Virus record (IMG/VR): IMGVR_UViG_3300025276_000001
Coordinates: 32,001-96,000 of that record
Direction: 5' to 3' (one strand)
DNA length: 64,000 nucleotides
DNA from: a virus
Made by a program: the position numbers and the translations under genes. How positions within the stretch are numbered: the stretch's first letter is position 1; the number at the start of each line of letters is the position of its first letter. The notes under the pieces were generated by a model that had not been told where the DNA came from, ran no database searches, and worked only from the letters and a program-made list of their open reading frames with translations. Of the stretch, positions 1 to 44,065 are shown piece after piece.

Positions 1-72
1 ATACATTATAGAGATGCAAAAGCATCTAACATGACTCCTTCAAATTACGTCATGACTAACGTTATAGGCTAA
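1..72 (+). CDS. 3' end of an upstream gene (partial)
   Basis: Frame 1 is open from base 1 (IHYRDAKASNMTPSNYVMTNVIG) to TAA at 70-72, followed by an AT-rich intergenic region. Confidence 0.5.
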   Translation: MHYRDAKASNMTPSNYVMTNVIG

Positions 73-138: not shown

Positions 139-3100
139 GTGAAAGTAAACAAATTAAGTTTAAAACAGGGTGGAGGAAGTAGTGAACAACCTTCACATCA
201 AATGCCAGATGGTAGTGTTATGCCAGGTGCAACTCATCAAGAAGCTGAGGGACAACCTATTATGCAAGACCCAAATCAACAACAAGATCCCGCTATTGCA
301 CAAATAACAGAGATGGTAAGTAGTGCTTTATCAGATGGAGAAGACCCAGTTGGTATAGTAATGGCTTTGATTGAACAGCAAGTAGATCAAAATATTATAG
401 CTCAAGCTTTTATGAGTGGTGGTTATGCAGAAGAAGATGTTGTTGCTTTATTTGAAACAGTACAACAAAAATCTCAACCTCCGGCTGCTGCTTCAGCAGA
501 AGAACAAACTAAAGATCCACAAGAGATTGCAAGAAATCAAGCTATGCAGGAAGAAGCTGTAGCTGCTGAAAGCCAAGAAGCAGAAATGCTTGCGGCTGAA
601 CAAGATGCAATGTCTGAAACCCTAATGGGTAAATCTGGTATAGAAATTAAACCTGAGAATAAAGGTAAATTTACCAAATGGGCTAAAGCCCGTGGAATGT
701 CTGTTTCTGAGGCTTATAATAAAGTAATGTCTAACAAAGACAAGTATGCTCCTAATGTAGTAAAGATGGCAAACTTTGCTAAGAATGCAGCAGGTTGGAA
801 AAAAGAAGAAGGTGGAGAGCAAGAAGCTTATAAGCCACACTTTATGTATAAGGGTAAAAGAAAAATTAGGGCTAAAGATATGGAAACACATCTTAGACTT
901 AAAGAAGCTGGTTATAATCATGATACACCTAAAGCACAGCCAGGTGGAGAACAAGGAACACAACTAGGAAGAGGTGAATCAATAAATACTAATGGAGAAA
1001 AAGTAAATAAATTTGGTAATACTAATGCTCAACAATCTATAATAAATCAAAATACAACAAGTAAACAAACAACATATCCAACTGAGTATTCCAATTATAG
1101 GAATGCTATGACAGCAAGAAGTGTTTGGGAAGATGGTGATGGTGGTAAAAACTTTTTGAAAGATTACCCACAACAAGCTGAATTAGATTCACTAAGAACA
1201 GTGTATAGAAATTTACCTAATATAACTAATATACCTAAAGGTAAACAAGGTAAAGAAATGATTAAGCGTGCTGATGGATCATATTCTCAAAGAGGCATGT
1301 GGGATAACATTAGAGCTAATAAAGGAAGTGGAAAAAAACCTACAGCTGAAATGTTAGCAGAAGGAAGAAAACTTAAAACAGCTCAAACGGGTACTGGAAA
1401 AACTGCTGCACAAAAATTCTATGAAACAACAGGTGTTGTTAAAAGAGGAGATGTATTAACTAATACTGCTCCAAGATATACATTACCAACTACATTCAGT
1501 GATGGAACAGATTTTACTGTATCTGGAGCTCTATCAACTCTTGCAGATGTTGGATCAACTTTATTTAGTAGTGAACTTGATGAAAATGGTTTGAAGTCAG
1601 GAACCTTTATGGATTGGAAAAAAAAGGGTGCTGTTGAAGATGAAATAAAAGGAAACTATTATAACTATGAAGGTACTATAGACCTTAATGATCCAAACCA
1701 ATATGCCGGAGATAATTTAGATTTATATAATGCATCTAAATATAAGAGACCACTTAGAACAGTAGAACAATATAGTGAAGACGTTATGGAAAACTCCATG
1801 GTCAACTATAATGAAGAAACAAAAGAATATGATTTTACTAGATCAAGTAGAAAAATCAATCCTAATCTACCTGGTGTTAATCAAAATTCTTTAGATGGAG
1901 AAAATCTAAATTACTTTAATGAAGTAGATGCTAAGACCAGACAAGAATTATTAGATTTTGGAAGTAGTGATGCTCCAGAAGGTACTACATTAAGTATAGA
2001 TGAAATGGGTGCAACAAGTTATGTAGATCCAGAAGCTGAGAATCTTAATGAGTATGGTACTATGATGGGTTATAATAAGTCAGGAGTAGATAGACGGCCT
2101 AAAGTTATTGAAGAGGAACAAACTTCTATGATACAACCCAATGAGCAAGGTATGTTTAGAGAGCCTAGTATTGTATCAGTTGATCAAACAGAAGAACCTT
2201 TAAGTTTTAAGGAATGGGCAATGCAAGATAGTGTTCGTAGAATGGGTGCAAATGCTCCACAACAATATCAAGACTATATTAATGGTGTAGAAACAGAAAC
2301 AACTAAACCAAGTCTAGAAGATAAGATAAAAACTGGATTAAATGAAGCAGGTGAATTTATTGAAAGTAAATACAATCAAGCTGCTCCAGTTGTTAGAAAA
2401 GGTATTGATGATGCGGGTATGTTTGTTAAAGACAAAGTTAACAGTGGATTAGAATACTTAGAAAATAAGTTTAAAGAAGGTGGTGATTTACCAAAAGCAC
2501 AGTTTGCTGGACAACCAGGATTCTATGATGCCTTATCAGAGTTTACTAGCAACTTGGATTATTCATCAAATTCAGATCAATCAGATATGTTTAATCAACA
2601 ACAAATGAGTTTTGATAATAATCTTCCTTTTGATAATCCAAATAATCAAAATGCAATAGCAGATTTAAATAATGCTATCAGCTTTGGTCAACAAACTGAT
2701 TACAATAGAGATACTGAAGCTGTTAAACGTGCACAAATTGATAATGGGACTTATGGTAATAATAAACAACAATGTCCTGAAGGTCAAGAGTATGATGAAG
2801 TAATGGGACAATGTGTATTAAAAACTGTTGATGTTGTTGAAGATGAAGTTGCAGTTGCAAAACCGCTATATGAACCTGATGCTCCTACAGTTAAAAGAAC
2901 AAATAAATTTAGTGGTGGTTTAAATAGATTTTTAGATAGTAAAGAAGTTGGTGCTTTTGAAGATGTTTCTACAGCAGCTGTAGCAGTAGCAGGTGTAGCA
3001 AATGATTTCTTTAGAGAACGTAGTGTAAATGAAGCAACAGCAAGCAATAGAGCTAATGCAACAGCAGATGAAGTATATGGAGTCAATGAAGATCCATTTA

Positions 3101-3423
3101 TGAAAAGAGGTTCATGGGATATTAATACAGGTACATTTGGTAGTGAAGGACAAAGAACAGTAAGAACAAATATGGGTACTGCTAAAAATGGAGGAGGAAT
3201 AAACAATGCAGGATTTAAAGCTTTGCCACCACAAGCACAACAAAATATTTTAGATAACATGTTATATGGTGGTGATCCAAACCCAGGTATTAGAGCACTT
3301 AGAAAAGTTGCTCCAGAAGTAGTATCAAAAATGGGATATAAATCAGGTGGAGAAACCATCAACGTAAATTCTACTATCTTAGCAAAACTAATTGCAGCGG
3401 GAGCTGATATTGAAATACTATAG
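139..3423 (+). CDS. putative virion cargo protein, modular and low-complexity (GTG start)
   Basis: 1094-aa ORF; Q/E-rich linkers; short basic modules such as GIEIKPENKGKFTKWAK...ANFAKNAAGW separated by xxGG motifs; lies upstream of the giant ejection genes, as in crAss-like phages. Confidence 0.7.
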   Translation: MKVNKLSLKQGGGSSEQPSHQMPDGSVMPGATHQEAEGQPIMQDPNQQQDPAIAQITEMVSSALSDGEDPVGIVMALIEQQVDQNIIAQAFMSGGYAEEDVVALFETVQQKSQPPAAASAEEQTKDPQEIARNQAMQEEAVAAESQEAEMLAAEQDAMSETLMGKSGIEIKPENKGKFTKWAKARGMSVSEAYNKVMSNKDKYAPNVVKMANFAKNAAGWKKEEGGEQEAYKPHFMYKGKRKIRAKDMETHLRLKEAGYNHDTPKAQPGGEQGTQLGRGESINTNGEKVNKFGNTNAQQSIINQNTTSKQTTYPTEYSNYRNAMTARSVWEDGDGGKNFLKDYPQQAELDSLRTVYRNLPNITNIPKGKQGKEMIKRADGSYSQRGMWDNIRANKGSGKKPTAEMLAEGRKLKTAQTGTGKTAAQKFYETTGVVKRGDVLTNTAPRYTLPTTFSDGTDFTVSGALSTLADVGSTLFSSELDENGLKSGTFMDWKKKGAVEDEIKGNYYNYEGTIDLNDPNQYAGDNLDLYNASKYKRPLRTVEQYSEDVMENSMVNYNEETKEYDFTRSSRKINPNLPGVNQNSLDGENLNYFNEVDAKTRQELLDFGSSDAPEGTTLSIDEMGATSYVDPEAENLNEYGTMMGYNKSGVDRRPKVIEEEQTSMIQPNEQGMFREPSIVSVDQTEEPLSFKEWAMQDSVRRMGANAPQQYQDYINGVETETTKPSLEDKIKTGLNEAGEFIESKYNQAAPVVRKGIDDAGMFVKDKVNSGLEYLENKFKEGGDLPKAQFAGQPGFYDALSEFTSNLDYSSNSDQSDMFNQQQMSFDNNLPFDNPNNQNAIADLNNAISFGQQTDYNRDTEAVKRAQIDNGTYGNNKQQCPEGQEYDEVMGQCVLKTVDVVEDEVAVAKPLYEPDAPTVKRTNKFSGGLNRFLDSKEVGAFEDVSTAAVAVAGVANDFFRERSVNEATASNRANATADEVYGVNEDPFMKRGSWDINTGTFGSEGQRTVRTNMGTAKNGGGINNAGFKALPPQAQQNILDNMLYGGDPNPGIRALRKVAPEVVSKMGYKSGGETINVNSTILAKLIAAGADIEIL

Positions 3424-3425
3424 TC

Positions 3426-6179
3426 ATGGCAAAAATTAAAATAAATAAATTACCAAAAGGGTTTAAATTACTAGACGGCAAAGTTGTTGAAGAACAAGTT
3501 ATGAGAGACGGAGGTGATTTACAAACTGGTGACCAAGCTGATTATGGCCTAGTTACAACTCCACAAGAATACTATAATAATACTAACTTTAACAACACTG
3601 ATGATAGGGATGTTAGATATAGTTTATCTAGTGTACCTAGAGAAAATGCTAATATAGAAGCTGAAGGTGGAGAAACTGTTTTAACAGATTTGACTAATGA
3701 TGGTACGTTTGGATTATATGATATAACAGGACCTAGACATTCTAAAGGTGGAGTACCAATGTTTTTACCTGAACAATCATTTATATATTCAGATACAGAC
3801 AAAATGAAATTTACAAGTGAAGAGTTATCTGAGTTTGGAATTAATAGTAAAAAGAAAATAACACCTGCTAAGTTATCTAAAAAATATCAATTGAATGATT
3901 ACTATAACCATTTAACAGATCCTTATGCAGATAATATACAAGCACTAACTTCAGAGTTAATGCTTAAAAAGAATATGATGAATCTTTCTAAGTTAGCATT
4001 TACACAAGAATCAAAAAAGAAATTTGAAGAAGGAGTTCCATTAGCTGCACATCCATATTTAGTACAACAAGGTATTGACCCAATACAGTTTACAGCAGAG
4101 ATGGAACAAATCAGTAGAGAGCAAGCTGAAATGGAAGCAATAGCAGCATTACCGCCTGAGCAACAACAACAAGTAATGATGATGCAACAGATGATGGCTC
4201 AAGAACAAGAACAACCTCAACAGCCTCAAGGTCAAGAAATGCAAACAGAAGAAATGATGATGCAAGAAGATGCTATGGCAAGATTTGGTGGTGAAAGAAA
4301 ATTAAAAAGATATCAAAAAGCAGGAGAGACAGGTAAAGAATATTCAGAAAGAATGGGTCAAACATGGGATCCAACACTTAAGAATCCTACATATGATAAG
4401 AAAAATAAGATGTGGGTATACGGAGATGGTACTCCATCTGTATCTAAGTCTGATGCTATGAGAATGGCTATGTCTGGACAAAAACCAAGTCAAGATTATT
4501 ACATTTCAGAAACTGAATTAGAAGGATCAGTAAATACAAATACTCAAACTGGAGGTGATAATGTAGAAGTATTAGAAACTGAAATTACTGAGTCATCTAC
4601 ACCAGGTACAGGTAATCCAGGTATACCTGCTGAACAGTGGGCAATATGGAAACCTTATATAGATAATGGAGCAACGCTAGAAACTATTACTCTTGATGAT
4701 GGAAGAAAAACAGTTAGAATTTCTACTCCAAAAAGTGATGTACAAAAACTTAGAGAACAAGTTACTGCTACAAATCTTGTAGGACGTGGAGGTACAACTG
4801 ATATATATGGTGAAGATATAAGTGGTCAAGGAAGAGCTATTAAAGAAGGAACACAAGAAGGATGGGTTTATAAAGAAGGACCACTTACAGGAGGACAAAG
4901 AAATGTTACTCAAGCAGGTGTTGATGGTGTGTATGGTTCTAGTGATATTAATTCTGAGACAACTCAAACAATATTTAGAGATAATTGGGGAGATACATTA
5001 GAAAAAATTGAAGAGCAATTTGGTGTTCCTTTTGACAATACCAATGATGAACAAGTTCTGGCATTTCAAACTGCTGCAGAAGAACAAAGAAAATTAGATG
5101 CAGCAGCAGCAGGTGTTGATTATATCCCATACTTTAAAAAACCAGGAGATGAAGGCTATGTAAAAGGACAGTCATTAGATGGCAAGATGGGTTTATATAC
5201 TATTAACATTCCTAGGTTAAGTAAGAATGACCAATTTAATGATGAAGCTACATACGGAGACATAACAAAAGATGATCTTGTACCAGGAGAAATTGACGTT
5301 AAAGAAAGAGGTCAACCAGAATGGTGGATTCAAGATCAAAATAATTTAAATGCATTAGGTCAAATAGATGATAATTTATATTTACCATGGGCTCCAGATG
5401 CACAACGTGTTACACTTGCACCAACGTTTGATGATTGGAGATCAGCTGTTAATTCAAATAATTCAACAGCTTCTACTATTGCTCAAGCTTTAGGAGCAGT
5501 TGGTGGACCACAAGCAGTTGCAAATTCACAAATACAAGGTCAAACATTAGAAGCAAATGCAAAAGCTATAAACAGAACTAACACAAATAATGTTGGAATT
5601 GCAAATCAATATGGAGCAATGCAAGCTCAGTATGATAATTTAGCTAACCAGGAGAATGATAAAAGAAAGATGGCTGTTTATGACAACACTCAGAAAACTT
5701 TGCAAGCACATGACAACTTTCTAAATTGGAAAATTGGTGAGAATGTTAAGCTACAAAACGCAGCATTAACAAATAGAGCTAATACATTTAATTTAAATAG
5801 CACATATGATAACTATGAAATTGATCCAAGAACAGGTGGTATAATTGATTTTACAGATCCAAGAGCATTAGAAAAACAAGGGCCAATAGCAGATCAAAAA
5901 TCAAGAGAAAGAGATTATTTTGAAGGAGTTACTTCTCTTGCTAAAAATTTAAATAGAGAACCTACTAGTGCAGAAATAGAAGGTTTCTTTGATTATACTA
6001 GAGGTAGTGGAAAGCCAGCATATAGAGATCCAAATATATCTAATGCAGCTGCTGAATTACAAAAAAAAGGTGCACCAGGAAGATCAGTAAATGCTAATGT
6101 GAACACACAAACAGCAAGAAAAGGAAAAGAACTTAAACGAATGGTAGTACCATTCTATAGTGGTAAAATGGGGAGATAG
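3426..6179 (+). CDS. putative virion cargo/structural protein with NIEAEGGE...GPRHSKGG domain
   Basis: 917-aa ORF 2 nt after the previous stop; the N-terminal EAEGGE/GPxHxxGG motif pair is typical of crAss-like cargo proteins; N/Q-rich coiled-coil C-terminus. Confidence 0.7.
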   Translation: MAKIKINKLPKGFKLLDGKVVEEQVMRDGGDLQTGDQADYGLVTTPQEYYNNTNFNNTDDRDVRYSLSSVPRENANIEAEGGETVLTDLTNDGTFGLYDITGPRHSKGGVPMFLPEQSFIYSDTDKMKFTSEELSEFGINSKKKITPAKLSKKYQLNDYYNHLTDPYADNIQALTSELMLKKNMMNLSKLAFTQESKKKFEEGVPLAAHPYLVQQGIDPIQFTAEMEQISREQAEMEAIAALPPEQQQQVMMMQQMMAQEQEQPQQPQGQEMQTEEMMMQEDAMARFGGERKLKRYQKAGETGKEYSERMGQTWDPTLKNPTYDKKNKMWVYGDGTPSVSKSDAMRMAMSGQKPSQDYYISETELEGSVNTNTQTGGDNVEVLETEITESSTPGTGNPGIPAEQWAIWKPYIDNGATLETITLDDGRKTVRISTPKSDVQKLREQVTATNLVGRGGTTDIYGEDISGQGRAIKEGTQEGWVYKEGPLTGGQRNVTQAGVDGVYGSSDINSETTQTIFRDNWGDTLEKIEEQFGVPFDNTNDEQVLAFQTAAEEQRKLDAAAAGVDYIPYFKKPGDEGYVKGQSLDGKMGLYTINIPRLSKNDQFNDEATYGDITKDDLVPGEIDVKERGQPEWWIQDQNNLNALGQIDDNLYLPWAPDAQRVTLAPTFDDWRSAVNSNNSTASTIAQALGAVGGPQAVANSQIQGQTLEANAKAINRTNTNNVGIANQYGAMQAQYDNLANQENDKRKMAVYDNTQKTLQAHDNFLNWKIGENVKLQNAALTNRANTFNLNSTYDNYEIDPRTGGIIDFTDPRALEKQGPIADQKSRERDYFEGVTSLAKNLNREPTSAEIEGFFDYTRGSGKPAYRDPNISNAAAELQKKGAPGRSVNANVNTQTARKGKELKRMVVPFYSGKMGR

Positions 6180-9672: not shown

Positions 9673-12600
9673 ATGGAAGAGGTACAAAATAATACAGGCT
9701 TAGCTGAAACAATCAAGTCACAGGAAGTTCCATTACAGGAGATACCTAAAGACAGACCTTATATTCCAATTGAGGAAATGTTTAATACTCCGGAATATGA
9801 TGAATGGATAAGCAGTGCTGACGTTGCACAAATACAACAACTTCAAGAGTCTAAATTAGACATTGATAAGTATAGCCCAGCTGCTATGGCCAACCTAGGT
9901 ATAGCACGTCCATCACAAGCAACTACAACATTTGATCCTGTTGCACAACAAAACCCACCAACATTAGAAGAAGAAGGTGGATTCACCAGGCTTCTTAATG
10001 AAGGTATGAATAAAAACTTATCTGTATTAGCTAAAGAAGCAAATGATAACTTTACTGTTGATCCAGTTATATCAAACATTAGACAAACTAATTTTAAAAG
10101 ATATTATGAACATCCTGAATATGCTGATTTAGGTTTCTCTCCTTTTGCAAATAATGAACAGTTCTATAATGAGAATTCTACAGTGTGGGATGATTACTCT
10201 AGAATGTGGGGTCAGTTTGGTAGCTTAGCGGGTACTGGATTTATGAGTGGTTACAGATCAATAGGTGACTTTTTTACAGGAGAAGGTTTAGAAGCAGATA
10301 GACAAAGTGCTTATGAGTTTGAAGATGCTATGGCAATTGGAAACTCATCAAGAGGTGGCGCAATGGCTTGGACAAATAACTTATTGCTTAACTCTGGATA
10401 CACTATGGGTATCATTAGTAGTATAGCATTAGAAGAACTTGTTTTAGCAGGAGCTACAGCTTTATCTGGAGGAGCATTAGGAGCTCCTGCCGCTATAAAA
10501 ACAGGAATTAATGCTGCAAAAATTACTAAGACAGTATCTAATTCATTTGGTGTAGGAAGAATGGCCAACTGGACTAGAAATATGTTGAAGCAATTAAATA
10601 ATGCTGATGCAGCTAAAGACTTATATAATGGTGCTAATAGTGGAAGAAAGTTTTTAGGTAAAATATTTTTACCAGAAACAACAGCAGCTATTAGAGGATT
10701 AAAAACTACAGCAAATGGTGCACAAAATGTAACTAATTTTGCTAAGGGTGCAAAAACATTTGGTGGATTCTATAAAGATTTAAGATCAGTTAACTATGCA
10801 TTAGCTGAGTCTAAGTTAGAGTCAGGTATGGTTTATAATCAGAGGTTAAGACAGAATTTAAATATTGCTAATGAATCAAATTTTGGAGGGGAAATAACTA
10901 CTGAACAAATGGAAGCTGCAACTAGTAATGCTAGTGAAGCTGCATTTGAAACTTTGATAAGAAATGCACCATTAATCTATGCAAGTAACTTTTTTGTTTT
11001 AGGTAATGCATTTGGTGGGTTTAATAAGTCATTTGCAAGAATGGCTAATGATAGTTATAAGTCTATTGGTAGAAGGATAATGAGAAAAGGTGCTGCTACA
11101 GGTGCAGACGGACAAGTACTTAAGAATGTTTTTTCTGATGCGGGTACAGGACTTAAAGGTTTATGGAATAGAACAAAGAATGCAGGAGTAAGAGGTGGGG
11201 GTAAAGCTTTATTTCATTCAAGTGCAAGATACTTTGCAGCAAATTTTGCAGAGGGTATACAAGAGGTAGGGCAAGAAGCAATATCACATGGTGTAAACCA
11301 TTACTATGAATCATTATTTAGAGATCCAATGTCAGGTGGTGCTCAGCTACATAAACAATCTGTTAATTCAGGTATGGGTTCTCAGTTTAGTGGGCAAGGA
11401 CTTGATGTATTTATGTCAGGTTTCTTAATGGGTGGTGTAGTATCAGGACCACAAAAACTTTTCTTCCAAGGCGTACCTGCAGTATATAACTTTGCAAAAG
11501 GTAAAGGAGCATTTGGTGCAGAAGGAGCAGCAGCAGTTGCTGAACAAAACAAAACAGAAAAAGAATTTATTGATTCTGTAGTAGCTTCATATAATGCAGT
11601 TGCAGAGGGTGTTGGTGGAGTAGCTCAGTCTGAAGGAAAAGATTCTGTTGATCCAGGATCTGCTTTTGACATGACTTTACTTAATTTTTTAATTCAAAAA
11701 CAAACAGGTGCTGAGTTAACAGGAAACTCATATGATGGTAACATCTTTGGATATCAAGATGCAAAAGACTTTGGTACATTCCATAACTTATACCAGGTGT
11801 TTAGTACTGGTGGTGCTGCTCAGTTTGAGAGTATGATAAAAGATTTCCAAAAACTAGATGATGCAGCTTTACTTGAAGCATTCCCTGCTAGCAAAGCAGA
11901 AATCAAAAGTGGTAAGTTTAGGTCTAAGTTTACTAAGATGGAACAAAACATGGACAAGATGGAAGTGGATTACAATGCAGCTAAGGATTTATTTCCTAGC
12001 CCATTTGATTCTAGCCAGATGGACAAAGGTACTAGAGCATACCAAGATGAAAGAATAAAAGAAATGTCTTGGAGACATGCACAGTATTTATACATGTTTA
12101 CTAAAGATGGATTTGATCAAGCATTGGTTAGATCAAGTAGTATATATAAAAGATTAGCTGCTGATCCATTATTTGAAGGAATGGCTACTAGTGATGTAAC
12201 TGTTTTATTAAGTCCAGATAGTTTAAAAAATGAAATAAGATTATTAAAAGAAGAGCTATCTACTTATGAAGTAGATGAAGACTCTAAGAAATTAAACAAA
12301 GAAATTATTGCTGCCAAGAAAGGTAAGCAAACTAGATTAGAAGCTTATTTAAAAGTAGTAGAGGATCCTAAAAATCAAAGTAAGGATGGTATCTATGACA
12401 GAAGAAGCATGACTGAAATTGAAAGAGTCTTTGATGATTATATTAAATTTATTGCTAAGAGTGAAGGCAGCTTTATAAATAAAGAAGCTAGAAGAGAAGC
12501 ACTAAAAGATATTATAGATTACAAAGCTTTAAAAGGAAGAGCTATAGTGTATGATAGAACTATGGAGATGATGGCAAATCCTGCTAGGTTCCAAGAGATA

Positions 12601-15600
12601 TTAGACAGAAACAATGCTCTTCATGATTCATACTTTGCTAACATAAAAGAAGAGTATAGAAAGACAATAGAAGACTATGTAGGTGTTGTAAAAAGAAATG
12701 AGTTAATGAATCAAATCACCAACATAGAAGGTGAAGACGTGATTCCTCATCCTTTATATGCTAAGATGTTTTTACAAACGGGTGATGCTTCTATATTTTT
12801 TGAAGGAGATAATTCTTTCTTTTTTGTTCCAGAAAAAGGAAGAGTAACTAAACTAAATAATCCTGTATTATTTGAAAAATTACAAAGTATTGTTTCAATG
12901 TATGAAGCAACAAATGTAAAAGAAGCTAAAATAGCTGAAGAAAAAGCTGAAGCAGATATTGCAGAAAAAAATAGACAAGAAGTTAAAGATGTACTAAATG
13001 ATATTGGAGTAGAAGAAAACCTACCATTCTCAACAAGTTCAGTATATAATAATTTATTAGATTCAAAGTATAATGCTTATGTAGCTACACAAGCTAACCT
13101 AGGTAAAGCTCCATTAACAAAAGATGAGTGGGTAAACAAGGATGGTAAAAACTTTAGAACCGCTTTTCAAGCACTTAGACAAGTCTGGGTTGCTAATGAT
13201 AAATTAATTAATCCCAACAAACCCTTAACTCAAAATGAAATTCTTGATGATACTAAATTTATTAACTGGTTGCTTTCTCCAACAGGAGGTCAAGTTTCAC
13301 CAGAGGTTGATTTGGTATTACAGAAATTAGAGATTTCAATGTTTGACGTTACAGGTCAAAAAGAAACAATACAAGATGGTGCTCAAGTACAAGATAATAT
13401 AGAAAGAGAAGTTGTTGGACAACCTGGTTTATTATTTGCTGTAGTAGAGGAAAATATTGAAGATCAAGAAACACTAAAGAAACAAGTTGTATACAAAATA
13501 ATAGATCTTAATACTCAAGAGGAAGTAGAAGACGCTATTCTACAAAGGTTTGGTTCAGACATAAACATATTTATGACCATAGGAGAAGCTCAAGCAACAT
13601 TGCTTTCTATGGAAAAAGATATGGGTGATGGTAAAACATTTGAGTTTACTGAGCCTGGTATTGGAAATGATAAAGAAACATCAACTACTTTATCTTTTGG
13701 TACTATTGTTTACAATAAAGATGGTGACCAGTTTATAGTACAAAGTAAAATGGACGGTATTATAAATGGTAAAGATTTATTCTTAATTCCTATTGATAAA
13801 GTAGGTTTATCATTTAAAGCCAAAGCAGAATTTTTAGTAAGAGTTCCAAGAGGTGGATTTGCTGGTGTATATAGTTTACAAGAAGTTAAAAATATATCAC
13901 CTGAGTCAGTATCAAGAGTAACACTAAATGAAATTGTTACTCCATATCCATATGTAAATAAAGATCAAAGTGTAAATCCTATAGCTGCTAGGAATGAAGA
14001 TCCTGCTAAAGCAAGAGATAGATATAATGCTATACTTTCAATTTTAACTGATGAAGAAATAAGTCAATTAGAACTTGTAGTTACAATAGATCCACTTGCA
14101 GTAGAGGGTGTATCAAAAGATTATCAAAGAAAAGGTTTTGAACCTAACCCAAACATTAGACAACAAGTATCTAAGTATCAAGTAGGTCTTAAGGCAGGAA
14201 GTATTGAAGCACAAGCAAAGATTGATACTTTACTTAAAGATATGGGATTAGATGATAGTGTAGATCCTAATAATATATTTGGGTTTATTGCTATAGAAAA
14301 CTTTAAGTTTATTAATACTAAGAACGGACCAGCTATTGATCCTTCTAGTATGTCTCAACTTGAGTTAGAAAACTTTATCAACGTACCACAATACTTAAAA
14401 GATAAACTTACAGCTTCAGAGATATTAGAAATGGTTCAGAAAAATTATGCTACAAGCATGGTTTTACAAGGTGTGTTAGATGCAAAAATGAAAGATCAAC
14501 CAATTGGTGTTTCAGTTTCAATACCTATATCATCTTTAAATTTAGATGAAAATGGTAAAGACCTAGGTCATAATATATCATTAGATCTAAAGCTTGGTCT
14601 AGTTGATTATGATAATAACACAAAAGGATTAAATGATCTGGAGTACTCTAGTGTAAATGAAAATGGTGATTACTTAATTTATAAGCTTGAAATGGGTAGT
14701 ACTGAGAGATCAGTGGTTCCTGTAACAAATCTTAAAGAAGGAGCAAGAGATAAACTTATTGCAGAAGTAGAAGTTCAACTAAAAAAGCAAAGCTTGTGGA
14801 ATGAACTTGCACAAGGTAAAGATGGTTATAAAGCTGTAGTACTATTACCAAATGGTACATATGCATTGATTCCATTGAAGGCTGTGCCTCTAGACATTAA
14901 TGAGTTAATGACTGAGACTATTGAGGCTGCTCAAAAAATTATAGAACAAAAAGATCATAATAGTAAAGATGGAATAAAAGGTGAAGCACTTAAAAAGTTA
15001 AGGGCTGATAACAAATTACGTTCTTCTAAATTATTTATAAGTTCACAAAGTGGATATTCTATTTCATTACAAGTCACTAAATGGGGTAAAATACAATTAG
15101 AGTTAGCACTTAAACAAGGAGAAAACTATTCTAGTGTAGCAAAAGTAACGTTGAGTGTTAAGGATATATCAAGTGATATAAGTATTGCTGATAAAACTAA
15201 AATACTTTTTGATGCTTTCAATAAAAATGCTGGTGTACAAGAAGCAGGTATATCATATACTGATGATAATGGAAACTTAAAAGGAATAGGAGCTAAAAAC
15301 TTTAGAGTATCATTTCCTAGAACAGCAAGTATAGCAGAGTTACTTGCAGTTACAACAACTGATGTAATGCCTAAAGTAGTAAATGATAATAACTTTACGT
15401 TGTCTGCTAGTTCATCTTCTATCCAAGCACAACGTGATATGGAAATGACTACTAGTGGAGTATTCCAACAAACAGAATCATATGTTGATGCAGAAGGTAA
15501 TGCTATACCTAAAGGTCCAGAATTAAGAACTGATTCTAACAATAAACCTTTAGTAGAAGTATCTGAAAATGTTGAAGACTCATTGTTAGATTTAACTCAA

Positions 15601-18600
15601 GAAGAATTTGATGAATATGCAGCAAGTAACTTTAACAATTTCCCTATAAAGTATTTACAACATATTGCTAATAAGTTAGATTTAACTGAAGTAGAACTTA
15701 ATGAGAAAGAAGCATTAGTATTTGAAGCACAACGTGAAGCAATAGCCGCATTAGCAGCTATAAATCCTCAAACTCCTGCAATAGATAATTCAGAAGTATT
15801 AGAAAGATCTGCACTTGTTGCTGTTAAAGAAAATATAAAAGCTTTAAAAGCTAAATTACAAAAAGGTAAAACTGGAATAGATAAAATTATAGTACTAAAT
15901 GAAAGTGAACAATTTCAAAGACTTTTAAAAAGAAAAGATGAATTAACTGGAGCGGCTAATAAAATTATAGCTGCTATGGAACCTCAAGATATAGAAGATA
16001 TAAATATCTTTTTAGCTTGGGCCAGTAATAATCTTCCGGGTAATATTACTATACAAGACATTGCTTTATTAGGTGACAACTTAAAAGCAGGCGGTGTCAG
16101 AGTTGGTGCATTTGTTTTAAACCTTAGCAACATAGCTGGTGGAGAAACAATTAATGGTACACTATATACTGGAGCTCAGTCTTCACATAGATATCATGAA
16201 GCTTTCCACGGTATATTTAGAATGTTACTTAGTGATGTTGAAATTAACAAGTACTTAGCAATTGCTAAGAAAGAAGTAAGAGCTAAACTAAGAGCTGAAG
16301 GTAAGACTTTAGAATCTGAGTTAAAAATGTTTAGACGTTCAGCTAACACTTATACTAATATGAGTATGAGTAGACTTGAACAAGAGTACTATGAAGAGTA
16401 TTTAGCTGATGAGTTTCAGAAATTTAAAAGAAATCCAAAGAGTAGTAATACTTCTTCAGAAGTTAAATCATTGTTTACAAGAATATTAGATTGGATTAAA
16501 TCTGTATTCACAAGTTATGATACTAAAGAGCTTCAAACATTATTTGATAACATTGATGCAGGTAAATATAGTGACGCTCAAGTAGCATCTAATCAGTTTA
16601 CTAATTTAGGTATTACATTAGAGGCTAATGCAATTATTCCATATTCTGAAAAAGAGGAAACTGCACTAGTGTCAGATACTGAAGGTGTACAAACAAGAAA
16701 GAATAGAACTGGTTTTTTATATTTAGATAGCGTAGTTGCTGATCCATTGGTTGCTTCTATAGCAGCAATGTATTTACAACGTGTTAGTAATAACACAGAT
16801 CCTTTACTTTTAAGATCTACAATGTTACAAGATGTATTAAATGATTTTTATGTATTGTATGATGTTGAATCACCACATAACTTATCTAAGTCTGATAAGC
16901 AAAAGGTGTTACTAGAACAAGCAAGTACTGCAATCATAGAATATAAAGAATCAATTAAAAAACAAGTATACGGAATATTAAATGTTATTGATACTCAAGT
17001 AACAGAAGAAGAATATAATGCTGAGTTTTTTGAAGACAAAGTTGGTTTAAGAACATCAAGTCAATGGAATACTGACGCATCAATGATTGGTGGTATACAA
17101 TCAACACCTAGAGAAGTAAGAGCTTATCTAGCTACTACTACTATTTCTGAGAAAGATTTCTTTGGTAATACAGAGTTAACACCTGGTGAACGTATAATTG
17201 TTCCTGTAAACTTTTCTGAAGTATATAATGGATTATTAAAGTCTGTTAAAAATATTGAAGACCCAAAACTAATGTTGCAGAACATGTACTTCTTTGGTCA
17301 ACAGAATCCACAAACTGGAGCAGCAGTAAGTAGAATTTTAAGTGACATAGGTATATCTGAAGAAGTGTTACTAAGTGATGCGCCTCTTCCTTTACAAATG
17401 AAAAATGCAAAGTTGTTTCAAGCAATTACTAATGCATTTGAAAACTTTAGAATAGATTATTTATTTACTCAAACAGATAACTCTGGTAATGTATTAATGT
17501 ATTCTGCTGCACAAAGGGATGATGTAAACTCTCAGTTAGATAGATGGTCTCAAGCTTGGGGTCAAGCATCTAAAAAACTTTCAGCAGACAAAGCAGTAAA
17601 GGTTCAATTAGAAAGAGTTTTGGATAGTCTTCAAGATTCATTAAATAACAATCAAGAAGAAGTAGGTATAAGTATAATTGACGCTCTTCAAGACAATGGT
17701 TTATTATCAACAGAAGAAAAAACTGCAATATCTGATAAGGCATTAACTGAAATGTCTCAAAAGTTCTCATCTAATATATTTGACTTAACAGGTATAAAGC
17801 TAAGTGCTCAGTTTATTGCATTTAGTATGATTAAAAATAGACAGGTTAAATTCTTAACACCTAAACAAAAGGCATTAATAAATGTCAATGCTCAAGAAAC
17901 TCCTATATCTCAACTTGATATAATTGAAATGAGACGTTTGATAGTAGACAATAGTGATATCTTTAGTGATGGGGATCAAGGAATGAATTCCAGACTTAGA
18001 AGAATGGCTATTGACAATGCACCTTTTGATGAAACAATAGGTCTCTCAGTATTTAAAAACGCTGAAGGTAACTTGGTTTATGCACATCAGAAAGGAACAT
18101 ATCATTTAAAAGAAGTACAAAAGTTAAATGATTTAGCATACTTAGAACAACTTAAAGAACAAGATCCTTATTTAGATAACAATCATCTTTTAAATAATGA
18201 AGCCTTTAAGCAATTATCAAATGACAATCAACAAAGAATATTAAGAATAGCGGGAACTGCAGTTGGTAAGATTAATGCTACTGAAGAAGAAATTAATGAT
18301 AACATATCTGGTATATCTTCAAGATCTACATATGGTAACTTTACTCCTCAAGAGTTTGCACTTAATTTAATAAACTCTTATACCGGATTACTAAATACTA
18401 AATCAGGAAAGGTAAAGTTTGTAGAATACAAAGATGGTAGAACTGGTAAAATGGTTAGGGTAGCATTAACTGCAAGCCTAATAAGAGTTTTAGAATCATC
18501 AAATACTGGAGATCTAATGTACATGCCGGTTGTTAATGCTGTAAGGTATGCAAGTGGTGACAGAGGATCAAGTGTGTTAACTGATGATGTACTTGTAGCT

Positions 18601-21600
18601 TTTACTAATTCTATAAAGACAGAGTATACACGTATACAAAGAGAAAGGTCTGATGCTTCTAATAAAAATGATGTAGTAGGTTATAACAAAACAGAATTTA
18701 ATGAAGAGACTGGTGAAGAAATAATTGGTAGAGCATTTAAATTACATAACTCAGCATTATTATTAGATCCAACAGTTAAAGGTCAATTAGAAGAAATAGC
18801 AAATAGATCTGAAAGTGTTTCATTTGAAGAAGCTTTAAAAGAATTAACTATAACACCTAAGCAATTTAGTAATCAACTTAATCAAATACTAGAAGCACAG
18901 TTTACTGAATTTAAATCTGAACTTGATCAATTAAATATAAGCAGTGAATTAAGTTTCAATGTAAAAAATGGTTTAACTGCAGATGCTAAATTTAGTGAAG
19001 CTGCTGAACTACTTAATTTAAAACAAGATAAAGATTATAACTTAAAGCAAATCTTTTTTAGTGACTGGGTAAATACAAAAGCTATTAATGAAATACTATT
19101 AGGTGATCAAGCTGTAACATTAAAGAATGGTGTAGATGCAATTAAAAGAGCTAAAGCACAAAATGCAGCTACAGTAACTGCAGCAAGTGTTATTGCTGAT
19201 CCAACAGTAGGTGTAATGCATCCAAATCAAAACTTAAGTGCTTTTGTTTTTGAAGAACCAAGAGGTGAATCTTCACTTACAGGTAAATCAATTGATGAAG
19301 CTGATGCGCAAGCATACTACACTCTTAAAGGATTAAGGTATAGTGAGTTTGGTTTTGGTACATTAACTCCAATGCAAGCAGCATTAATTACAAGATTAGA
19401 ACAAGGAGAAGACATTCCTTCTGAAGAAATATTTGGACAGGATGGTTTTGTATCTAATGGAAGCATGATCAATTCTAGAAAGCTAGTTTATGCAGATGGT
19501 AAAACATTTATTAAAATGTCTACGTTTGTGTTGATTCCTGCTTATACTTCTAATCCAGTTAGAGATGATAACGGAAACATTATTGACTGGGTGGCTAAGC
19601 CTAATAGAGTAGCTCTACACAATCTTAGAATGAAGATGGAGGCAGAAGAAGTTCTAACTGAAACAACGTCTATAGCGGCTCCCTTAAGTGCATTTAAAAT
19701 GCTTAAGCAGAACGTATCTTCTTTAGAAGAAATAGAAAATACTGATGATGTCTTTACTGAAAAACCTACTAAGTTAAAAGCTAAGTATCTTGGACTACAA
19801 GTTCCAGGTCCATCAAACAAAATGGAAATGGTTGATCCAACACAGATAAAAAACATAGTTACATCAGAACAGAAAGATGACACACCTATACCAGGAATGC
19901 AAATGAATGGTAAAACTATGACTGTTGGTGATGTAAGAAGAGAATACAATAAAGCTACTAGTCAACGTTTTGAATTGAAGTTTAAAAATAAAAGAAATTT
20001 GACTTTTAGTTTTGAATCAGCAATGAATGAATTAAGCATATCTAAAAAGGTTGGAGCAATAACTCCTAACCTAATGGCATTTTTAAAATTTGCTCAGAGT
20101 GGTTTAAAATCATCTCAATCAAGTAGTAATCAATTAGAATTCTTTAGTACAAAAGATGGAGAGCAACAATATGATTTAAATAATCCTATTACTATAAATA
20201 ACTTTGAGAGTTTATTTTTAAACTATTTAAGTAAAGGAACACTTGCTGAGAAAATACCTGGGCATAGTCTTGTATTAGTATCTGACTTTGGAAGTAATAT
20301 ATACAGAAGAGTATTTAGCTTTGATGAAAATGGTATTCCTGATAGATCAGTAGTAATAAGACAAAAAGAATGGGAAAGCTCAACAGGTATAAACTCTAGT
20401 GTAAATAATACAATTCAAAATTCTACACAAATAGATGGTCAACCAACTTGGAAAGAAGTTAAAGTACCCGCAGAAGGTGTAGTAATTCTTGACCGTTTAA
20501 GATCAGCTGTAAAAGAATATGATAGTAAAGGAGTAGCAACAGGACTTAGGTATACAGAAATGATGATGCCTTCTCACTATGCTGATGTAATGGATATGAT
20601 TGAGAATGATCCAAGTGCATCTATACCAGATGTGATTGCTAAGATGTTTGCAATACGTATACCATCTCAAGATAATCATTCAACTATAAATAGTAAGTTG
20701 GTAGACTTTATGCCTGCAATCTATGGTTCAGTAGGTATGTATTCAAGAGAACTGGTAGAGATATCAGGAGCGGATTTTGATATTGATAAAGTGTTTAGTC
20801 AAATAAAAGAATGGTACATAAAGAACAATGAGTTTGTTGAGTATGGTAAGACTACTAATGAACGTGAAGCATATGAAAACTATATTGAGTATGTAAAAAT
20901 AAAAGTTAGTAGAAAAGGAACAATATACAATGAAGCATACCAACTAAAAGATTCAGACAATCAATCAATTAGAGAAGGTAACCCTTCAGCGGAAGTTGTA
21001 TCTGATGAATTAGGGCCAGTATATGATCCAGCTATTACTGCATTAGAGATGTTAGGTTTACCAATATCATTTGAACAATATAAAGAATACAAAAATAAAA
21101 ACGGTGAACCTTATGAAGCACCACACAGTAATAAAATTTTAGATTATAAGTATGCTCTGATGGGTAATACAGCAGTAACTGAAGAAGCTTTAGTTGGAGA
21201 ACTTCCAATATCATATACTCCGGCAAGTCTAGATATTCTTGAAGATATATGGAAAGAGTTTAGTGATGAGACAGAAGATAGTTCTACTAGATCTGAGTAT
21301 CTAGTTAAGCGTTCTAGAGAAGATAACATTGATATAGATAACTTATTAGGTAAGATAAAAGCTTTTGCTGCAAATAAAGGTGCGGCCATTGGTGCAGTTG
21401 TTTCTCCTAATCAAGCATTGAGTTTACTAACAGAATATAAAATTCCTTTGGGAGGTATAAATGCTCCGGTAATTGAAATAGATGGGGTTACCTTTAATAG
21501 TTTTGAATACTTAAGAGAAAGATTAGCGGATGGTAAACTAGGATTAAGAAAACAAGATATCATTTCTTCTCTGATAACAATGGCAACAGATAATGCTAAA

Positions 21601-36165: not shown

Positions 36166-36408
36166 ATGAAAAGACAAGGTTTACAACGTCCAAAGATGAC
36201 AAAACAAAAAGCCAAGCTAATGTGTAAACGGGCTGGTGGAGAACTTGATGACATCATGTATGGATCTATGGTTGAAAAAATGACCAAAGGTGGTACTGCT
36301 AAACGTAATGTATATAGTGCTGAAACCGGAAGAGAGTCTATGCAAGAATATAATCTTGGTGGCGGAACCCACAACACATATAGTGGTAAAAGAAAAAAGA
36401 AAAAATGA
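36166..36408 (+). CDS. small basic protein with repeated xxGG motifs
   Basis: KRAGG, MTKGG, YNLGG; K-rich end overlapping the next start. Confidence 0.65.
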   Translation: MKRQGLQRPKMTKQKAKLMCKRAGGELDDIMYGSMVEKMTKGGTAKRNVYSAETGRESMQEYNLGGGTHNTYSGKRKKKK

Positions 36409-37478
36409 ACATTCTAACTGACATACTAAGTTTATTCAGACGTAAGAAATTTGTAAAAGCAGCACTTCCAAATGATGTTATAGTTTTAGGCCTTAATGAA
36501 GAGCCTGATATGACTGGTGTTGCATCACCTATACCTTATAAAAGTGTTAGGTTAATCAAAGTAAAAGATTTTAAAATTGCTGCTGAACACTGTGATCATG
36601 TTAATGTTCCAACAGTACCAGGTGCAAATACCGGTGCTGTATATCAAAAAACTGCAGTAGATAAAGAAACTGAAAAGTGTACGGTTAGTTTCCGTACATT
36701 AAAGTCATTAAGTACTAACCTTACTATTGGTCCATCATCAGACAATGATTATGTAGAGTTTACAACTACAGGAGAACCAAACACTGCTGCAAATGTAGGA
36801 TCAGGAAAAGGTGTTTGGAAAGATAAAGTTGGGGAGACTCTTAATTTTAAGTCATTAGTAGAAGGAAGTGGTATTACGATAGCTGAAAGTTTAAATGAAA
36901 TAACTATTACATCTACAGGTGGAGGCGGTATAACATCTGTAACAAATTCAATATCCGCTGGATCTACAACACCTCTAACTGGTTCTATAGCTGGAAGTGT
37001 ACTTACTTTAACGTCAAATGTGTATGGAGGTGGCACCAAAGTTGGGTATGTACCTTCCGGTTCAGCCGGAGAATCAAAGGTTTTCTTAGATGGAACAGGA
37101 ACTTGGAGAGAACCATCATATACAGTATTGCCTAGTGTAGCATATAATGAATATGCCGCATTAGTTTCACAAACAGGAACAGGTGATCCTACTTTAATAG
37201 TATTAGAATCAGGTATATCAGTAGGTGGTACAACAGTAGTTATAGCAGGTACATATACTAATGTAGGAACATGTACTTTTACATTTACCCCAAACATACC
37301 AGATGCAGATAAAGTTGTAATTGCTGTAACAGAAACACAGAAAAATGCTCCGTGTTTATTTAATGTCATTAATGTAACAACTTCTGGTTTTCAAATTATA
37401 CAACATTTTGGTTCTGAAGTTACACAATCAAATGGTTTGTTATTTAAGACACCATTACTAATAAAATTATATAATTAA
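36405..37478 (+). CDS. fibre-like structural protein
   Basis: T/G/S/V-rich; NVGSGKGVWKDKVGETLNFKSL fibre motif; C-terminal YAALVSQTGTGDPT...IKLYN domain; N-terminus shared with the 37488 and 39471 proteins. Confidence 0.7.
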   Translation: MNILTDILSLFRRKKFVKAALPNDVIVLGLNEEPDMTGVASPIPYKSVRLIKVKDFKIAAEHCDHVNVPTVPGANTGAVYQKTAVDKETEKCTVSFRTLKSLSTNLTIGPSSDNDYVEFTTTGEPNTAANVGSGKGVWKDKVGETLNFKSLVEGSGITIAESLNEITITSTGGGGITSVTNSISAGSTTPLTGSIAGSVLTLTSNVYGGGTKVGYVPSGSAGESKVFLDGTGTWREPSYTVLPSVAYNEYAALVSQTGTGDPTLIVLESGISVGGTTVVIAGTYTNVGTCTFTFTPNIPDADKVVIAVTETQKNAPCLFNVINVTTSGFQIIQHFGSEVTQSNGLLFKTPLLIKLYN

Positions 37479-37487
37479 AACAAAGTT

Positions 37488-38132
37488 ATGAGCAATATAT
37501 TACAAGACATGTTAGGAATGCTTACTAGGAAAAAAGTAGCAACTCCAAAGTCAGATGATTATTTAGTTGTTTCCAGGTATGCAGATCCACAACAAGTACT
37601 TAAACCTTTACCTAAGATCAATACAGAATTGATTACATTAAAGGCATTAAAAACATTTGTTAATGTAGGTGGAGCAGATGAATATGTTAATGCAGCAACT
37701 TTTGATGGAGCTACGGACTTATTAACTCTAACTAGAGTAGGAGGAACTGCTATTACAGTAGATATGGACCGTAAGGATACTAAAGAATTTGTAAACTTTA
37801 CTGCCTTAACTGTTGCAACTGGTGCTACTACAGTAATAAATACTAATTCACCAGGTCAATTATTTCTTGTTGCTAGAACAGGAGAAGATGGAACAGGAAC
37901 ACTTCAGTTACCCCCGGCAGCTGGAACAGAGAATTGGCAATACAGAAAAATAACTATTACAACTAATGGTTCAACTTCAGCAGCTAAACCAATTACACTT
38001 GATGCACAAGGATCTGAAACAATTAATGGTGGAGCTAATCTAGTGTTAGATAAGGTATATGCATCAGTAACAATTTGGTCTGATGGTACTAATTGGATTG
38101 TACTTTCATCATCTCAAGTAGCAGCTGTATAA
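37488..38132 (+). CDS. short fibre/decoration protein
   Basis: Shared N-terminal domain; C-terminal LQLPPA...TINGG...SDGTNW beta domain common in phage fibre proteins. Confidence 0.7.
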   Translation: MSNILQDMLGMLTRKKVATPKSDDYLVVSRYADPQQVLKPLPKINTELITLKALKTFVNVGGADEYVNAATFDGATDLLTLTRVGGTAITVDMDRKDTKEFVNFTALTVATGATTVINTNSPGQLFLVARTGEDGTGTLQLPPAAGTENWQYRKITITTNGSTSAAKPITLDAQGSETINGGANLVLDKVYASVTIWSDGTNWIVLSSSQVAAV

Positions 38133-38575: not shown

Positions 38576-38845
38576 ATGCCAAATAATATGAAAAAAGCAG
38601 GAATTAAGTATGGAAACGGTGGTTCCAAAGCAATGAAAAAAAAGAACATGGGCGGTGGAGGATTCTCTTACGGAGATGGAGACATGCAAGAAGATCCAAG
38701 ACAAGCAAACATGAGAGCTATGGCTGCAGGTGGTGGCTTAAAAGGCTTTATGGCTGGAGGTAGTGTTGTGGATGGAATGATTGAAAAGAAAGCTTACGGT
38801 GGTAACGCTGGAGATATAAGTAGATCTGCTAGTACTGATTATTAA
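38576..38845 (+). CDS. small G/M/K-rich protein with five xxGG motifs
   Basis: YGNGG, KNMGG, MAAGG, FMAGG, KAYGG. Confidence 0.65.
   Translation: MPNNMKKAGIKYGNGGSKAMKKKNMGGGGFSYGDGDMQEDPRQANMRAMAAGGGLKGFMAGGSVVDGMIEKKAYGGNAGDISRSASTDY

Positions 38846-42415: not shown

Positions 42416-44065
<1,650 letters not shown>

Follow-up and report, generated by a model that had tools for sequence, protein, structure and literature searches.

The stretch of DNA studied here (the window: 64,000 nucleotides, bases 32001–96000 of the IMG/VR virus record IMGVR_UViG_3300025276_000001, a viral genome of 114,099 bp, complete and flanked by direct terminal repeats) carries near its start the gene g1 (139..3423, + strand), which encodes a modular, cargo-type protein of 1094 residues. 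The gene starts with GTG; its close homologues begin at the same position, with ATG, and at least 519 homologues of near-full length, from 633 to 1428 residues, are colinear with it apart from variable inserts. The protein is divided by a short, recurring glycine motif, here called the seam, of two types, [K/Y/M/F]-x-x-G-G and K-A-Q-x-G. The seams are conserved, they mark the edges of the large insertions and deletions of the family, and the small modules between them recur, in different orders, in many other proteins. Conservation was counted in an alignment of 60 homologous sequences (mean column identity 21%), and the AlphaFold model of g1 was built with the family alignment (mean predicted local distance difference test score, pLDDT, 46.9). 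From the N- to the C-terminus, the parts of g1 are:

139..177, + strand: N-terminal leader of 13 residues ending at G11-G13, the first seam (pLDDT <50; G12 kept in 55/60 sequences, G13 in 57/60)
178..285, + strand: His/Met-rich cassette, residues 14–49, present in only some homologues in the MAFFT alignment (net charge −5)
286..477, + strand: four-helix island, residues 50–113 (pLDDT 69–76; many invariant columns)
634..816, + strand: module A, residues 166–220, three helices, with its closing seam, 221–226 (pLDDT 59–87; seam <50)
817..948, + strand: β-hairpin and helix module, residues 227–263, with a seam at 264–270 (pLDDT 82–87)
949..1251, + strand: clade-specific low-complexity insert, residues 271–371, within the 267–415 block (pLDDT ~30)
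1252..1392, + strand: module B, residues 372–412, with its closing A-Q-x-G seam to residue 418 (G418 invariant)
1402..2238, + strand: central conserved region, residues 422–700, colinear in nearly all homologues (pLDDT 60–75 at 466–550)
2470..2502, + strand: best-conserved seam by alignment columns, residues 778–788, F-K-E-G-G followed by D-L-P-K-A-Q
2884..3189, + strand: C-terminal conserved domain, residues 916–1017 (many invariant or near-invariant columns; pLDDT 65–71 at 911–950)
3196..3351, + strand: two 26-residue cassettes, residues 1020–1045 and 1046–1071, with G-G ends, missing in 53/59 homologues
3352..3420, + strand: C-terminal cap module, residues 1072–1094 (E1072 in 59/60; 1081–1094 nearly invariant)

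The original prediction had named ten pentapeptides as brackets of these modules, and all ten are present in g1, at residues 8, 164, 222, 266, 368, 415, 778, 1015, 1041, and 1067. Of these, GKSGI opens a module and is no seam, and AQPGG, GKQGK, AKNGG, MLYGG, and YKSGG sit in clade-specific inserts. Plain GG shows no excess in g1 (12 vs. 8.1 expected, p ≈ 0.10), whereas [KYMF]xxGG is found 8 times vs. 1.45 expected, a count reached by 0/300 shuffles. Among 70 non-redundant relatives, GG occurs 517 times vs. 319 expected, with K/Y/M/F 3.0–3.7-fold enriched at position −3 and E 3.1-fold after the GG. Nine of the 19 instances in the genome of GG followed by D/E fall in g1 and its neighbour g2, which together make up about 5% of the proteome, and the late-strand proteins are richer in the seam motif (1.67 vs. 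0.78 per 1000 residues).

The seam glycines are kept in 54–59 of the 60 sequences (G781 in 57, G782 in 58, G1070 in 59, and G1071 in 54, besides those of the leader), while the incidental glycine G94 is kept in just nine, the GG at 94–95 being non-conserved. Conservation extends beyond the glycines of the seam at 778–782, with L784, P785, K786, A787, and Q788 each at 56–59/60, so that D/S-L-P-K-A-Q is nearly invariant; the second seam type, K-A-Q-x-G, is also conserved. Relatives tolerate the variants Q-D-G-V and A-Q-x-G-L at seams. The motif is moreover found at the very start of the chain: 168 of the 239 collected proteins have a GG among their first 16 residues, vs. about 15% expected. As for charge, the modules had been described as mostly basic; four of the six named are basic (net +3 to +7), but one is at 0 and the His/Met-rich one is acidic, as is g1 as a whole. 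A DNA-condensing role, also proposed originally, found no support in this net acidic protein.

Elsewhere in the window, two small open reading frames (ORFs) on the + strand consist almost wholly of x-x-x-G-G motifs: one of 80 residues (36166–36408; 3 motifs vs. 0.42 expected) and one of 89 residues (38576–38845; 6 vs. 1.25 expected). Interspersed with them are three tail-fibre-like genes (36405–37478, 37488–38132, and 39471–41984) that share an N-terminal segment; the two small ORFs may encode small virion or assembly peptides using the same motif.

The proposal that the mini-modules behave as cassettes is borne out by seam-bounded insertions and deletions, and the occurrence of both module orders shows that they are reshuffled as well as gained and lost; it is far more general than g1. 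Of the four large indels seen most often in the family, three both begin and end at seams:

Insertion after g1 residue ~226–230: 34/59 homologues, directly after the G-G seam closing module A
Block 267–415 missing: 53/59 homologues, the edges being two K-A-Q-x-G seams
Block 1018–1069 missing: 53/59 homologues, the edges being two G-G seams, with the flanking seams there joined directly
Insertions before ~777: 25/59 homologues, immediately upstream of the seam at 778

The remaining indels lie in low-complexity stretches, and the cassettes inserted in relatives each have their own G-G at the C-terminal end. Parts of the N-terminal 430 residues of g1 are shared by 1,890 shorter proteins, and copies of module B, 70–83% identical, occur in many unrelated proteins in either order relative to module A. 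In stand-alone proteins of 134 residues, A precedes B and the internal seams are degenerate, while in proteins of 400–540 residues that also carry SLT or DUF5754 domains, B precedes A; further, unrelated proteins have modules A, B, and the cassette 1020–1045 in yet other orders, and A and B are also found alone or fused to lysozyme domains. Module A was found in at least 580 stretches of viral contigs, the contigs measuring 8–225 kb and the ORFs 58 to ~1,270 codons; tblastn of module B against cultured phages gave no match. In most of the module-sharing proteins the modules are again parted by x-x-x-G-G, sometimes as tandem bare hexapeptides. The C-terminal cap module keeps its place: it lies ≤4 residues from the protein end in 127/127 matches and is never internal.

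Two further observations concern the carriers of module A. On large IMG/VR contigs (L036–L048, 100–225 kb) it is found in 65-codon ORFs that stop inside the module, which may reflect stop-codon reassignment or a truncated domain. The first 10 residues of g1 and g2 (window 139–177 and 3426–3530) share the signature Lys-Ile/Val-Asn-Lys-Leu, with similar starts in unrelated module-A proteins on viral contigs L013 and L016; the signature common to g1 and g2 could be a targeting or ejection leader. A dedicated recombination site at the seams was considered and dropped, because the seams share just ~8–9 bases of microhomology and their glycine codons follow the general GGT/GGA usage.

The predicted structure of g1 alternates between order and disorder in register with the seams. 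Confident islands are found at residues 50–112, 176–218, 231–260, 466–550, and 911–950, and pLDDT falls below 50 in the seam regions 1–21 and 219–230, the insert 266–381, and the last 55 residues. The four-helix island has helices at 51–65, 70–79, 84–93, and 98–112, and the hairpin module has strands at 234–238 and 241–245 and a helix at 248–256, with H234, M236, K238, and A245 invariant. In the model, helices 760–779, 1031–1042, and 403–414 stop 0–2 residues before the seam motif, which would fit a hydrophobic-x-x-Gly helix stop. No fold match was found by Foldseek with the g1 model, just generic helical and coiled-coil similarity; a Pfam scan of g1 and g2 found no family, and per-module Pfam searches of g1 gave nothing at E ≤ 1 and no recognisable enzymatic domain.

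The two neighbours of g1 and one gene further downstream bear on what the seams might do:

genome 27756–32072 (L004:7756–12072; window 1..72 is its end), + strand: upstream virion protein, 1438 residues, with SLT, two LysM, and YkuD domains
3426..6179, + strand: g2, folded cargo-type protein, 917 residues, with seams at residues 25–64 and 263–296
9673–23940: g4, 4755 residues

The g2 family has 1654 cluster representatives at E ≤ 0.001. Its AlphaFold model is better ordered (mean pLDDT 75.6), with both seam regions again <50; G30 is invariant and G288 is kept in ≥90%, and the g2 homologues close with a K-M-G-G-type motif, after which there is at most one more residue. Of the three motifs that the original prediction had noted in this gene, MRDGG and ARFGG stand at conserved columns, while ARKGK is a degenerate variant. 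A long helical hairpin is predicted with high confidence at g2 residues 672–793 (window 5440–5800; helices 672–700 and 703–793), and its likeness to the coiled coils of ejection and translocator proteins is generic only (Z 6–7.6).

The upstream protein of 1438 residues is also enriched in [KYMF]xxGG (6 vs. 1.95 expected, p = 0.02) and has an HExxH at residue 461 with an Asp three residues later, an arrangement described for the peptidase domains of phage polyvalent proteins (Iyer et al. 2017, PMC5512222). Judged from its domains, it would be a “polyvalent” cell-wall toolkit (YkuD is L,D-transpeptidase-like) and a candidate protease carrier. The HExxH region matches DUF3810 weakly (E 0.029), and LPD23 by embedding only; hidden Markov models of LPD or MPTase families gave no match on the cargo HExxH regions. 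A tblastn search with the upstream HExxH region against 82 module-A loci (80 viral contigs plus L001 and L002) also gave no match, so that co-occurrence provides no argument for a protease. The g4 protein, presumably a virion RNA polymerase polyprotein, has no Pfam match at E ≤ 0.01, one HExxH (residue 2175), and one cysteine, and BLASTP showed no similarity to the RNA polymerase (RNAP) subunits of gut crAss phages.

The source virus is a distant, uncultured marine crAss-like phage. Its portal protein (genome 108809–111565) is 23–32% identical over 82–99% of its length to crAss-like portals (gut, Cellulophaga, Flavobacterium, Leptolyngbya), and the head-gene region yielded capsid, portal, and terminase genes in PHROG scans. 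Within a series of giant late genes (2100, 1438, 1094, 917, 1133, 4755, and 1991 residues), g1 is the third, a setting like that in cr128_1 and jaberico; in gut crassviruses, what would be the corresponding slot is taken by the cargo genes, with the stabilization (muzzle) gene on one side and those for the virion RNA polymerase on the other. None of the giant neighbours resembled the stabilization, gp46, or RNAP proteins of gut crAss phages by BLASTP or had a stabilization or RNAP Pfam family, and a megablast of 20 kb against phages gave no match.

The similarity of g1 to known phages is confined to module A (~60 residues, 166–226), which occurs in the gp45/C1 genes of 57 crAss-like records, from cultured and uncultured crassviruses; the gp45 of the cultured phages PhiCrAss001, DAC15, and jaberico carries it. 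Residues 168–233 of g1 are 47% identical to residues 235–300 of the gp45 homologue of cr128_1, which in turn matches PDB 7qog_M (PhiCrAss001 Cargo protein 1, gp45) with an E of 1.5e-148. A tblastn search of cultured phages gave no g2 homologue and for g1 only the module A match, in Bacteroides crAss-like phages. The family crAss_CARG1 (PF25725, 133 positions) had no match at E ≤ 10 in a six-frame search of the complete genome, and g1 has no transmembrane-like segment (maximum 19-residue Kyte–Doolittle mean 1.29, in the C-terminal module); we therefore call g1 a protein of cargo type with one module in common with C1. Like g1, gp45 (PDB 7QOG; Bayfield et al. 2023, PMC10172136) belongs to a late virion block, carries module A with flanking G-G motifs, and is mostly disordered or unresolved with small structured segments (PMC10172136). 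Unlike g1, it has a predicted transmembrane helix (136–158), and the similarity between the two is limited to just ~60 residues.

The structure of gp45 provides the one view of a seam in a particle. Residues 425–552 of gp45 have clear cryo-EM density on the portal wing (PMC10172136). By alignment, the gp45 seam closing module A falls at residues 426–428, with further G-G pairs at 434–435 and 447–448, a placement that assumes native numbering of the deposited chain; as the seam lies inside the continuously modelled 425–552, it would be intact in mature virions. The portal-bound domain (gp45 425–552) was not found in g1, and phmmer of g1 and g2, together with the g2-family profile, found no gp45 match among PDB sequences. 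By hhalign, g2 residues 109–202 resemble the gp45 portal-bound region weakly (prob 18%, E 1.3e-3), while Foldseek and VIA-align with the g2 model did not list gp45 and gave only generic helical and coiled-coil matches. If the phage has such a portal-bound domain at all, it may lie in g2.

Most likely, g1 is a cargo protein packaged in the virion and injected into the host. We infer from the above that it would be packaged and ejected with its seams uncut, and that the seams would have a mechanical role. The protein would resemble beads on a string, with autonomous folds of 25–100 residues joined by [K/Y/M/F]-x-x-G-G (often followed by E/D/S) or K-A-Q-x-G seams, each of which would close one fold, provide a flexible Gly-Gly, open the next fold, and stay uncut in the virion. 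Each bead could then fold and unfold alone, both during storage of the chain in the portal and tail and during its N-to-C passage through them, the mechanism proposed for PhiCrAss001 gp45, for which N-to-C extrusion through both has been put forward (PMC10172136). Because each cassette brings its own seam, seam-to-seam indels would remain in frame and leave neighbouring folds undisturbed, and such harmless exchange would explain why cassette gain, loss, and reshuffling are tolerated. We put forward tentatively, at somewhat less than an even chance, that uncut seams isolate small folds in a chain that has to be kept partly unfolded and passed through portal and tail.

Several points weigh against the threading of an uncut chain. 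A passive hinge leaves unexplained why a seam follows just 6–13 N-terminal residues (168/239), why g2 homologues carry a K-M-G-G-type motif at their C-termini, and why there are tandem bare hexapeptide seams and a −3 preference; the uncut state is argued by analogy from a single seam of one distant phage; and the HExxH motifs of the adjacent 1438-residue protein and of g4 might mark proteases. The motif at the extreme N- and C-termini implies more than a passive linker, and suggests recognition of the seam by some other component as well, perhaps as a handle for loading or docking. In that case the seam would be a short linear motif bound by a part of the virion, be it the portal wing, the tail-barrel rings, or an assembly factor, recruiting its carriers into the cargo zones of capsid and tail, with multivalency setting copy number and ejection order. 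The terminal motifs and the tandem repeats without modules between them speak for it, as do the 80- and 89-residue motif-only ORFs among tail-fibre-like genes, the higher motif density of late-strand proteins, and the portal-bound gp45 segment, which starts at a seam and holds two further G-G pairs. Against it are the stand-alone 134-residue module proteins with degenerate internal seams, and g3, g4, and g5, which are also presumed cargo and are not motif-enriched. A docking handle is on balance unlikely; it overlaps with the reading of an uncut seam and, in the less probable event that it applies, would account for the terminal motifs. The original suggestion of a capsid-targeting signal has some support from the motif at N-termini (168/239) and at the C-terminus of the g2 family. 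That the motif is a compositional accident, with chance G-G in a Gly-rich, low-complexity protein and modules that are arbitrary segments, would agree with the number of plain GG, which is within chance, and with the non-conserved GG at 94–95, but is extremely improbable given the excess of [KYMF]xxGG (8 vs. 1.45), the seam columns at 54–59/60, the indel edges at seams, and the recurrence of the modules in ~1,900 other proteins.

Alternatively, g1, g2, and the upstream protein might be cut after G-G by a phage protease, in the capsid or after ejection, into ~10–20 small peptides and domains, the candidate proteases being the zincin-like HExxH regions of the cargo block. This would suit the strong G-G conservation with its preferences at −3 and +1, the short N-terminal leaders ending in G-G (168/239 proteins), the g2 homologues that finish with a G-G-type motif plus 0–1 residue, the C-terminal seam owned by every cassette, and the HExxH at residue 461 of the adjacent protein and residue 2175 of g4. 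Zincins are not known for Gly-Gly specificity, and none of the curated peptidase models matches the HExxH regions. Zincin-like domains are predicted to process multidomain phage proteins (Iyer et al. 2017, PMC5512222), and P1 DdrB is cut before packaging, but N4 virion RNA polymerase is packaged unprocessed despite having such a peptidase domain (PMC5512222). The Gly-Gly-specific families Peptidase_C48, C39, and C5 had no match at E ≤ 1 in a six-frame search of the complete 114-kb genome (the search controls gave matches in 1, 7, and 3 of 14 control genomes, and PF00770 none above the cut-off), nor did the prohead proteases S78 and S77 at E ≤ 1 in the complete genome or in the PHROG scans of the head region. 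PhiCrAss001 virions show bands from 15 to >300 kDa, including three RNA-polymerase-associated subunits (gp47, gp49, and gp50), and the size discrepancies reported are no more than “moderate”. In the PhiCrAss001 structure the equivalent seam is unbroken, the variants Q-D-G-V and A-Q-x-G-L are tolerated, and the terminal module is never internal, a fixed chain polarity (127/127) that is unexpected if the order of the pieces were irrelevant. The lack of a matching protease family, the intact gp45 seam, and the polar module order thus tell against the original view of the seams as maturation-protease sites, and we consider cleavage of g1 improbable. The same low standing applies to the particular form in which the 1438-residue protein, g1, and g2 are a self-processing system whose co-packaged zincin-like domain cuts after G-G. 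If it held, the phage would carry a customisable library of ~20 small peptides and enzymes, freed in the capsid or after injection, and self-processing would be a further way to account for the appearance of PhiCrAss001 gp45 segments on either side of the portal.

Junctions of this kind recall several known systems. Gly-Gly processing occurs at adenovirus protease sites, in African swine fever virus pp220/pp62 by pS273R, and in double-glycine leaders by C39 peptidases. As in g1, G-G is preceded, a few positions away, by a hydrophobic or basic residue and followed by a variable one, and the sites recur along one precursor, but g1-type leaders have 6–13 residues vs. 15–30 for double-glycine leaders, and C5, C48, and C39 were undetected in this genome. 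The internal proteins of T4 have a capsid-targeting N-terminal leader that is cut by gp21, an S77 protease, at the site Leu/Ile-x-Glu, and the ejection proteins of T7 (gp14/15/16) and P22 (gp7/16/20) are packed in the head and leave ahead of the DNA. The T4 type needs an S77 protease, which was unmatched in this genome, and none of the T4, T7, and P22 internal and ejection proteins is known to be a series of cassettes joined by a recurring motif. The T7 and P22 proteins are also discussed in PMC10172136, which does not describe the seam and cassette architecture and has 0 occurrences of “protease” or “cleav-”. A further parallel is offered by the polyvalent proteins (Iyer, Burroughs, Anand, de Souza, and Aravind 2017, PMC5512222), which are large, multidomain, and co-delivered with DNA, with domain shuffling and zincin-like HExxH. 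The upstream protein with its SLT, LysM, YkuD, and HExxH fits this class, while g1 differs in having mini-modules of 25–60 residues without enzymatic domains; the description of the class has no fixed junction motif, and the word “linker” is absent from it (PMC5512222). Literature searches, within the papers that could be searched, found no published description of the seam motif.

Crassviruses rank with the most abundant phages known. No part of their particle is less well understood than the cargo proteins, which for the most part do not show in cryo-EM and have not been assigned to families. A conserved junction motif provides a simple rule for dividing such proteins into units, could explain their fast diversification, and offers an experimental handle on how proteins are loaded, stored, and threaded out of a phage particle. 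Should the seams be cut or bound, they would amount to a new processing or packaging code across thousands of marine and gut phages.

Two minor observations concern the surroundings of g1. The cargo genes (window 139–29923) encode proteins nearly without cysteine: over ~9,900 residues, g1 has two, g2 and g3 none, and g4 and g5 one each. On the − strand, next to the DNA polymerase and nucleotide-metabolism genes, the window also holds a full-length GroEL-type chaperonin (42416–44050; PHROG 5725, E 9e-171).

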